Positions 2,218 to 2,643 of a DNA stretch of 4,423 nt are shown here, piece by piece. Position numbers and translations under genes: made by a program. The first letter of the stretch is position 1; each line of letters begins with the position of its first letter. Source of the DNA: a virus. Lineage: Monodnaviria > Loebvirae > Hofneiviricota > Faserviricetes > Tubulavirales. The notes below the pieces were generated by a model. That model was given only the letters and a program-made list of their open reading frames with translations. It had not been told where the DNA came from and did not search any database. The DNA lies in the IMG/VR virus record IMGVR_UViG_2693429642_000019; one strand, given 5' to 3'.

Positions 2218-2643
2218 ATGAATCAAATTTACGACAGTTTTCCGTTTCCTTCCCCTGAGGGTTTTACCTCAGGCATGACAATGGCGGGATATTTTATTCA
2301 CGTCACTGTCATAAATGATGAGGAGTTAAAACCCACGGGTTCTCATTATAACCCTGAGGCTAAACCCAAATATGCCATTGTTATTGCCTATCCGTATGAG
2401 GACCGAAAATTAAAAGTCCGCCGTGAGGAGCATGAGCGCTTTTCCTGTACTGAGGAGGATTTTAAATTTTTTAATTCATGTCCTGATTTGCAGGGCAAAC
2501 CTGTTTATCTCACGGTGGATGTTAACTCATGGGCGACAGGCTCAGAACGTCATGGTGTCTGGTATCGTTTTATTTCCGGCTCCATGAAACGTTTTGACGG
2601 TCAGCCGCTGGGTGCACTGCCCGCAGGTAAAGAAAAAGGCTGA
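2218..2643 (+). CDS. Hypothetical 141-aa protein at the gV position; candidate ssDNA-binding protein
   Basis: ATG at 2218 preceded by SD GAGGAG (2204-2209) with 8-nt spacing. It starts 31 bp after the rep stop and its TGA stop overlaps the next gene's start region. Function is inferred from position only; a GKPVYL segment is weakly reminiscent of M13 gpV. Confidence 0.65.
   Translation: MNQIYDSFPFPSPEGFTSGMTMAGYFIHVTVINDEELKPTGSHYNPEAKPKYAIVIAYPYEDRKLKVRREEHERFSCTEEDFKFFNSCPDLQGKPVYLTVDVNSWATGSERHGVWYRFISGSMKRFDGQPLGALPAGKEKG

Follow-up and report, generated by a model that had tools for sequence, protein, structure and literature searches.

A candidate single-stranded DNA-binding protein with a predicted OB fold in the gene V slot of a dif-integrating filamentous phage of Escherichia coli

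In the Ff phages (M13, f1 and fd), the gene that follows rep and precedes g7, g9 and g8 encodes gpV (PF02303), a single-stranded DNA (ssDNA)-binding protein folded as a compact all-β barrel of about 87 amino acids (aa) without a helix between strands β3 and β4. The gpV dimer binds ssDNA cooperatively and represses the translation of gene II. In dif-integrating or related inoviruses, a protein of 103-106 aa (RstB in CTXphi; the 'V protein' in fs2, VFJ, Dolos and Vaf1) also lies directly 3' of a Rep of the RstA/GPA type. RstB is needed for the integration of CTXphi and is said to resemble ssDNA-binding proteins (PMC3545932). Here we describe ORF141, a 141-aa open reading frame (ORF) in a 4,423-nt stretch of inovirus DNA (IMG/VR record IMGVR_UViG_2693429642_000019), hereafter called the window. 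Our analysis suggests that ORF141 is probably the ssDNA-binding protein of a XerCD/dif-integrating inovirus of E. coli, the functional counterpart of both gpV of Ff and RstB of CTXphi. The gene and its closest features are as follows.

2218..2643, plus strand: ORF141 (ATG at 2218, TGA at 2641-2643), 141 aa, candidate phage ssDNA-binding protein, analogue of gpV/RstB
2204..2209, plus strand: Shine-Dalgarno sequence GAGGAG, 8 nt 5' of the ORF141 ATG, read from the sequence
2590..2640, plus strand: K124-R-F-D-G-x-P-L131 segment and Pro/Gly/Lys tail (residues 124-141), from family alignments

The ORF141 gene, its family and its place behind rep

The original prediction had placed a 141-aa ORF, larger than canonical gpV, at positions 2218-2643 and in the gene V position after rep. 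Its coordinates, its size relative to gpV (87 aa, encoded at 843-1106 in M13) and the Ff-type gene order were all confirmed. The order in the window is that of gII-gV-gVII-gIX-gVIII-gIII in Ff, and ORF141, located between rep and the g7/g9/g8-like genes, occupies the same slot as Ff gene V. The stop codon of Rep is separated from the ORF141 start by 31 nt, and that of ORF141 from the following 46-aa membrane ORF by 4 nt. A length of about 140 aa is unremarkable for an inovirus ssDNA-binding protein, because the one of Pf1 (G5P) has 144 aa.

ORF141 is a real conserved gene under purifying selection and not a chance ORF, as judged by its substitution pattern and its homologues. Compared with ten other copies, it showed 50, 25 and 103 differences at codon positions 1, 2 and 3, respectively; for the more diverged copies, the ratio of nonsynonymous to synonymous substitution rates (dN/dS) was 0.11-0.15 in the ORF141 frame and above 1 in four of the five alternative frames; and full-length homologues were found down to 25% identity. 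An overlapping minus-strand ORF (2542..2763, 73 aa) was set aside, because the substitution pattern matches the plus frame. Of 5426 complete E. coli genomes, 48 (about 1%) carry the gene, often in several copies and always annotated 'hypothetical protein'; many of the carriers are human stool isolates. The protein has an isoelectric point (pI) of 6.1, with 17 K+R versus 19 D+E, and no signal peptide or membrane segment was detected in its N-terminus (MNQIYDSFPFPSPEGFTSG); it is predicted to be cytoplasmic. A scan for repeats and inverted repeats within 2100-2760 gave nothing notable.

Employing profile searches, we found a full-length match of ORF141 to phrog_30648 ('unknown function'; E 1.2e-95, residues 1-141 of 141), which was matched by 19 of 19 aligned family members. 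A single-sequence query of 5.8 billion proteins gave 17 clusters, and a profile query of 1.84 billion proteins gave 9 representatives; with a broader profile, 23 clusters were obtained. Named members are from E. coli, plasmids of Citrobacter and Proteus, Xenorhabdus, Morganella, Providencia, Moellerella and Proteus (those of Morganella and Providencia known from cluster names only), and all are labelled hypothetical. Residues G15, F16, G24, F26, K51, V96, W105, G113, W115 and Y116 are conserved family-wide, and V55, C77, D127 and G128 are nearly invariant.

The only Pfam family to recur was PF17426 ('Putative G5P'), which matched ORF141 with 13.5 bits (E 0.081; residues 85-122 against profile positions 65-102 of 108), below its gathering threshold of 25 bits; it appeared for 10 of the 19 members with a best E of 0.006, each time sub-threshold. 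Members of PF17426 are also encoded next to the rolling-circle Rep genes of small plasmids of the Acinetobacter type (PMC10378824). The idea that it represents the Pf1, RstB, VGJ or fs2 family was rejected, since it matches none of these. Thus the profile searches that the original prediction had proposed linked ORF141 neither to gpV nor to any known family of ssDNA-binding proteins, and left only phrog_30648 and the sub-threshold PF17426. PF02303 was not reported for ORF141 at E<=1, and neither ORF141 nor its relatives matched the Pfam SSB family (PF00436). There were no matches in NCBIfam, PADLOC (defence systems) or Rfam, none among 50,697 phage records queried by megablast and tblastn with the window and with ORF141, and none in scans of GTDB species representatives with the ORF141 alignment or Rep; a profile search of all PDB sequences gave a chance match only (aminopeptidase C, E 0.45). 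On these searches, ORF141 represents a tiny unannotated sequence family without a Pfam or NCBIfam model.

We further compared the gene order at two loci found via Rep homologues (41-45% identity) and three found via ORF141 homologues. The original prediction had reckoned with the possible absence of the ORF from otherwise syntenic relatives; instead, a family member lies just 3' of a GPA-type rep at every locus examined (E. coli, Salmonella, Proteus, a Xenorhabdus-type Logan contig and the prophages with P0023, a 25%-identical relative). At the two Salmonella loci (Rep 45% and 41% identical), rep is followed by a protein of 139 or 145 aa, to which the ORF141 profile aligns with E-values of 2.5e-35 and 5.6e-35. 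In three inovirus prophage copies, P0023 is flanked by a Phage_GPA Rep immediately on its 5' side and by the coat gene on its 3' side. P0020 (Logan contig; cluster members from Xenorhabdus) and P0027 (contig; cluster including Proteus mirabilis) also follow a Phage_GPA Rep, with one small ORF between. Homologues of Rep sharing 41-65% identity were found in E. coli, Salmonella, Morganella, Providencia and Xenorhabdus.

The Rep of the window is about 30% identical to those of VFJ, fs2, Vaf1 and Dolos and to RstA of CTXphi (about 31% over 63% of the query for RstA). At this level of Rep identity, the slot holds an unrelated RstB-type protein of 103-106 aa (103-104 aa in VFJ, Dolos and Vaf1), annotated as ssDNA-binding or RstB in VFJ, Dolos and CTXphi and as hypothetical in Vaf1. 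With a family member after rep at all loci examined and the RstB type at about 30% Rep identity, rep and ORF141 travel as one replication module. Judged from the sequences compared, the gene V slot is always filled, and the family that fills it changes with the Rep clade. An exchange of gII and gV as one module has been described for Xanthomonas phages (bioRxiv 10.1101/2023.12.30.573655) and for UPphi901 and YpfPhi (PMC7307601).

Some of these loci show further peculiarities. An extra ORF of 57-69 aa lies between rep and the ORF141 homologue in the Xenorhabdus-type (L027 4528-4737) and Proteus-type (L028 3569-3742) loci and is not found in the E. coli and Salmonella versions. In one P0023-type prophage copy (L025 1153-5326), rep is interrupted by an IS21-family element (transposase and IstB), and the ORF141 homologue is intact. 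The Salmonella enterica contig DAAVPZ010000028.1 (L037 1-9157) carries a related inovirus with a 41%-identical Rep, an ORF141 homologue, Zot and secretin; its neighbours are IncFII repA, the RepA1 leader, PilI, an IS110-family transposase and a KfrA-like gene. Owing to these plasmid-type neighbours, this inovirus is apparently plasmid-borne and not located at a chromosomal dif. Homologues of ORF141 are likewise carried by conjugative plasmids of Citrobacter youngae and Proteus mirabilis, as detected by tblastn.

Predicted fold and comparison with known ssDNA-binding proteins

An AlphaFold2 model of ORF141 was generated from a shallow alignment (19 family members, Neff 2.8). It has a mean pLDDT of 74 and a pTM of 0.66, with residues 20-100 averaging about 87. 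The model consists of β1 (18-31), a short helix, β2 (52-62), β3 (67-77), a helix (79-86) and β4 (95-101), followed by a low-confidence loop (102-115) and β5 (116-118). This order, β1-β2-β3-helix-β4-β5, is the classical OB-fold topology with a helix between β3 and β4, and the model of P0023 shows the same order of elements at lower confidence (pLDDT 63). Given the model, the assignment of ORF141 to the OB fold is well supported.

Searched against the PDB with Foldseek, the model matched almost only SSB and PriB proteins (best E 1.8e-3); matches in BFVD were weak, and the named ones were nearly all phage SSBs, except for two DUF669 proteins. In three independent structure searches, nucleic-acid-binding OB folds ranked above all others; the match to a non-DNA-binding family that the original prediction had held in view did not appear, none outranking SSB/PriB. 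The best structural matches are Rim1 (6cqk), mtSSB (8uzt), 1ue6, E. coli SSB (1kaw/1eqq) and PriB (2ccz), with the same element order as in the model, 85-100 aligned residues and 7-14% identity. The fold of ORF141 is therefore probably closest to the SSB/PriB type. Unlike the bacterial and mitochondrial SSBs and PriB, ORF141 is encoded by a filamentous phage, and it lacks the acidic C-terminal tip of SSB (D-D-D-I-P-F type, on a disordered linker), its own C-terminus (...RFDGQPLGALPAGKEKG) being basic.

Sequence homology to the ssDNA-binding proteins of other inoviruses was rejected in each case. The hhalign probability was 0.3% for M13 gpV (alignment A3; two-sequence BLASTP E 0.59), below 1% for Pf1 G5P, 0.1% for the RstB-like protein of CTXphi, below 1% for VGJphi ORF112 (DUF1293) and 0.2% for the fs2/VFJ/Dolos/Vaf1 family (against alignment A4). 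The faint resemblance to gpV in the GKPVYL segment, to which the original prediction had drawn attention, is at chance level: QGKP(V)Y of ORF141 corresponds to QGKPY of gpV, and the segment forms the start of strand β4 in the model, whereas its counterpart in gpV is a hairpin tip.

By these comparisons, ORF141 is not a stretched gpV. Like ORF141, gpV is small, cytoplasmic and β-rich, and the two are presumed to share the job of coating plus strands and committing them to packaging, but the model of ORF141 departs from the compact helix-less barrel of gpV. The structure prediction suggested at the outset thus gave an OB fold, nearest to SSB/PriB, and not a barrel of the gpV type. Of the two options raised originally, a divergent or extended ssDNA-binding protein and an unrelated function at this position, the predicted fold and the constant place of the gene behind rep favour a ssDNA-binding protein. 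By the architecture of the replication module, the nearest functional analogue of ORF141 is the RstB/fs2 V protein type. However, ORF141 is unrelated to that type in sequence, is about 35 residues longer and is paired with another Rep subclade (at least 41% identical to the Rep of the window, versus about 30% for phages of the RstB/fs2 type). The Pf1 protein is similar to ORF141 in size, and both have a C-terminal extension beyond the barrel, but there is no sequence similarity, and the Pf1 protein belongs to another replication module and another host.

Integration at dif and the proposed role of ORF141

The window matches part of the chromosome of E. coli strain 100416 at 99.5% identity; there, an 8.7-kb prophage unit of 11 genes lies in tandem beside hipBA, the two copies being 8739 bp apart. 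The unit begins with a small minus-strand ORF, Rep, ORF141 and the 46-, 56- and 80-aa proteins and continues with a 451-aa g3-like protein (Phage_Coat_A), a 119-aa protein, Zot, a small minus-strand ORF and the secretin. Besides ORF141, the unit thus provides Rep, three small membrane/coat proteins, g3-like and g6-like proteins, Zot, the secretin and minus-strand ORFs of 62 and 74 aa, and we found no other ssDNA-binding candidate among the 11 genes.

By searching for the arms of dif in the strain 100416 locus, we detected dif-like hybrid sites, GGTGCGCATAA-TGTGACACGCG-TTATGTTGAAA, at the left end of the prophage and at the junction of the copies. These sites (L001 8505-8537 and 17244-17276), which read (G/A)GTGCGCATAA-TGTGACACGCG-TTATGTTGAAA, are located directly 5' of the stretch matching window position 1, one adjoining hipA and the other at the tandem junction. 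The positions of the sites indicate XerCD/dif-type integration, like that of CTXphi, YpfPhi and CUS-1 (PMC4266046). The canonical E. coli dif, with up to 3 mismatches allowed, was not found in the fetched locus. The spacer between the dif-like arms is apparently longer than the 6 nt of canonical dif.

We propose the following role for ORF141. Rep of the RstA/GPA type would nick the plus-strand origin, and rolling-circle synthesis would displace single-stranded plus strands. ORF141, produced from its strong ribosome-binding site just 3' of rep, would bind the displaced strand via the OB-fold barrel, presumably as a cooperative oligomer; the conserved aromatic and basic residues K49, K51, W105, R111, W115, Y116 and R117 (in β2, the β4-β5 loop and β5) are candidate DNA contacts. 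A strand coated in this way would not be converted back to the double-stranded replicative form, which would amount to the switch to single-strand production, and ORF141 may also exert a regulatory effect on rep. Zot and the secretin would then take over the coated strand for export, with the 80-aa coat protein taking the place of ORF141 at this stage. By analogy with RstB (PMC3545932), the coated strand may perhaps also be the form integrated at dif, giving ORF141 a possible part in integration.

We favour this reading because of the slot and gene order, the lack of another candidate in the prophage, the OB fold, the inheritance of ORF141 together with rep and the substitution of other families in the same slot; the recurring PF17426 matches, purifying selection and the dif location with its parallel to CTXphi RstB lend it further support. 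Several observations weigh on the other side. ORF141 is not basic, its pI of 6.1 making it mildly acidic; no sequence link to any demonstrated ssDNA binder was found in five hhalign comparisons (all below 1%) or in the profile search of the PDB; the structural scores are moderate and come from a shallow-alignment model, the five models ranging from pLDDT 55 to 74; and the PF17426 match is sub-threshold (13.5 versus 25 bits), the function of PF17426 itself being merely putative. OB folds also serve many other uses.

Binding of ssDNA in some form, including for integration only, is likely. In its restricted form, ORF141 would be an RstB-like integration factor that binds the single strand mainly for XerCD integration at dif and is not needed for replication or packaging, host SSB doing the work in replication. 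The RstA-like Rep (see above), the location of ORF141 in the rstB slot and the tandem prophage at dif with dif-like junctions would all suit such a factor, as would the requirement for RstB in CTXphi integration (PMC3545932). Restriction to integration is nevertheless very unlikely in our view, considering that ORF141 has no sequence similarity to RstB-like proteins and that the phage possesses a full Ff gene set, including the secretin, with no other candidate for gpV; besides, this possibility overlaps with the coating role, as it still involves ssDNA binding, and does not exclude it. A PriB- or SSB-like accessory that works with Rep or with the host primosome or helicase, for example in complementary-strand priming or in helicase recruitment via the RFDGxPL tail, and does not coat progeny strands, appears improbable to us. 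PriB and SSB are indistinguishable at the structural scores obtained, but the slot and the absence of another gpV candidate favour coating, and ORF141 ends in ...LPAGKEKG without the acidic tip of SSB. Filamentous phages are not known to encode primosome components.

It is quite unlikely that ORF141 is an OB-fold protein acting on something other than DNA (host-modulating, mediating superinfection exclusion or resembling a toxin B subunit) that merely sits in this slot, or that the model is wrong and ORF141 has some other function. No defence-system match was found with PADLOC, nucleic-acid-binding OB folds headed the three structure searches, and ORF141 was always present with this Rep clade at the loci examined. 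In addition, dif-integrating inoviruses usually carry their accessory genes at the ends of the prophage and not in the stretch from rep to the coat genes (PMC4266046, PMC7307601). Since the protein has no N-terminal signal peptide or membrane segment, a role as a secreted B subunit of an AB5 toxin is unlikely and was set aside.

Outside the barrel, the RFDGxPL segment is the most conserved motif of the family and is kept down to 25%-identical relatives. Close members (alignment A1) show next to no variation at R125, F126, P130 and L131, and the near-invariance of D127 and G128 extends over the whole family (alignments A2 and A3). The region lies beyond the confidently modelled barrel, pLDDT falling from 54 to 37 at residues 131-141. 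The segment could serve in oligomerisation or partner docking. One may go further and regard ORF141 as the founder of a distinct class of single-strand-handling proteins in inoviruses, derived from cellular SSB/PriB or convergent with them and not of the gpV type, in which RFDGxPL would dock Rep, the assembly ATPase Zot or host proteins of replication or the Xer system. We consider this unlikely; if true, rolling-circle replication would be coupled to packaging or dif integration by direct recruitment, beyond coating.

With ORF141 as the ssDNA-binding protein, a testable function can be offered for a 'hypothetical' family (phrog_30648) that belongs to the replication module of filamentous prophages integrating at dif in E. 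coli and Salmonella, with relatives in Morganellaceae (Proteus, Providencia, Morganella and Xenorhabdus). The locus would be a further example of a gene V slot occupied by OB-fold proteins that are unrelated in sequence and move together with their cognate Rep, which is of use for inovirus annotation and module-based classification and leaves the general picture of filamentous phage replication unchanged. Most likely, what is new is an unannotated SSB-like sequence family with a conserved C-terminal RFDGxPL, the job and the slot being already known. That segment is the one feature of ORF141 that could hide partner recruitment; the rest would not surprise a specialist.

Other features of the window and distribution of prophage copies

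The other features of the window were assigned as follows.

187..2187, plus strand: Rep, rolling-circle replication endonuclease (Phage_GPA / RstA type), 666 aa; PF05840 Phage_GPA, E 9e-49
2648..2788, plus strand: 46-aa hydrophobic ORF in the g7 position; annotated CDS in a near-identical E. coli prophage
2781..2951, plus strand: 56-aa hydrophobic ORF in the g9 position; annotated CDS
2976..3218, plus strand: 80-aa major coat protein precursor in the g8 position; weak match to phrog_1646 major coat protein, E 0.0035
3234..3251, plus strand: intrinsic terminator, 7-bp stem with 6 GC pairs, then TTTTTT

Rep also matches phrog_91 ('nicking at origin of replication') and is annotated 'replication endonuclease' in NZ_CM128593.1. 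The assignment of the 80-aa coat precursor is further supported by a signal-peptide-like N-terminus and by the g8 position. As in Ff, the terminator closes the block rep-ORF141-g7-g9-g8, and the g3-like gene, with a Gly/Ser repeat linker, lies 3' of it.

The g3-like gene contains a tandem array with units of 39/78 nt (3946-4216; 3.5 copies of 78 nt, 95% match), which encodes a (GGS/GSGSG)n linker. The copy number of the array varies among relatives: megablast alignments are interrupted there, and the best-matching sequence is shorter by 78 nt. At 82-116, a 16-nt unit (GCAAAATTGCACTTGT) is directly repeated (2.2 copies, 89% match) and overlaps a hairpin (96-117). Positioned between the divergent small minus-strand ORF and rep, this repeat could be an operator or an origin element.

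Identity of the prophage with UPphi901 was rejected, because neither the window nor any of the loci compared in this test contains the published primers. Some E. coli strains carry many copies or fragments of the prophage at far-apart coordinates (for example, 17 places in NZ_AP043614.1 and 11 in NZ_AP027790.1). Such scattering beyond one tandem array suggests secondary insertion sites or rearrangements.
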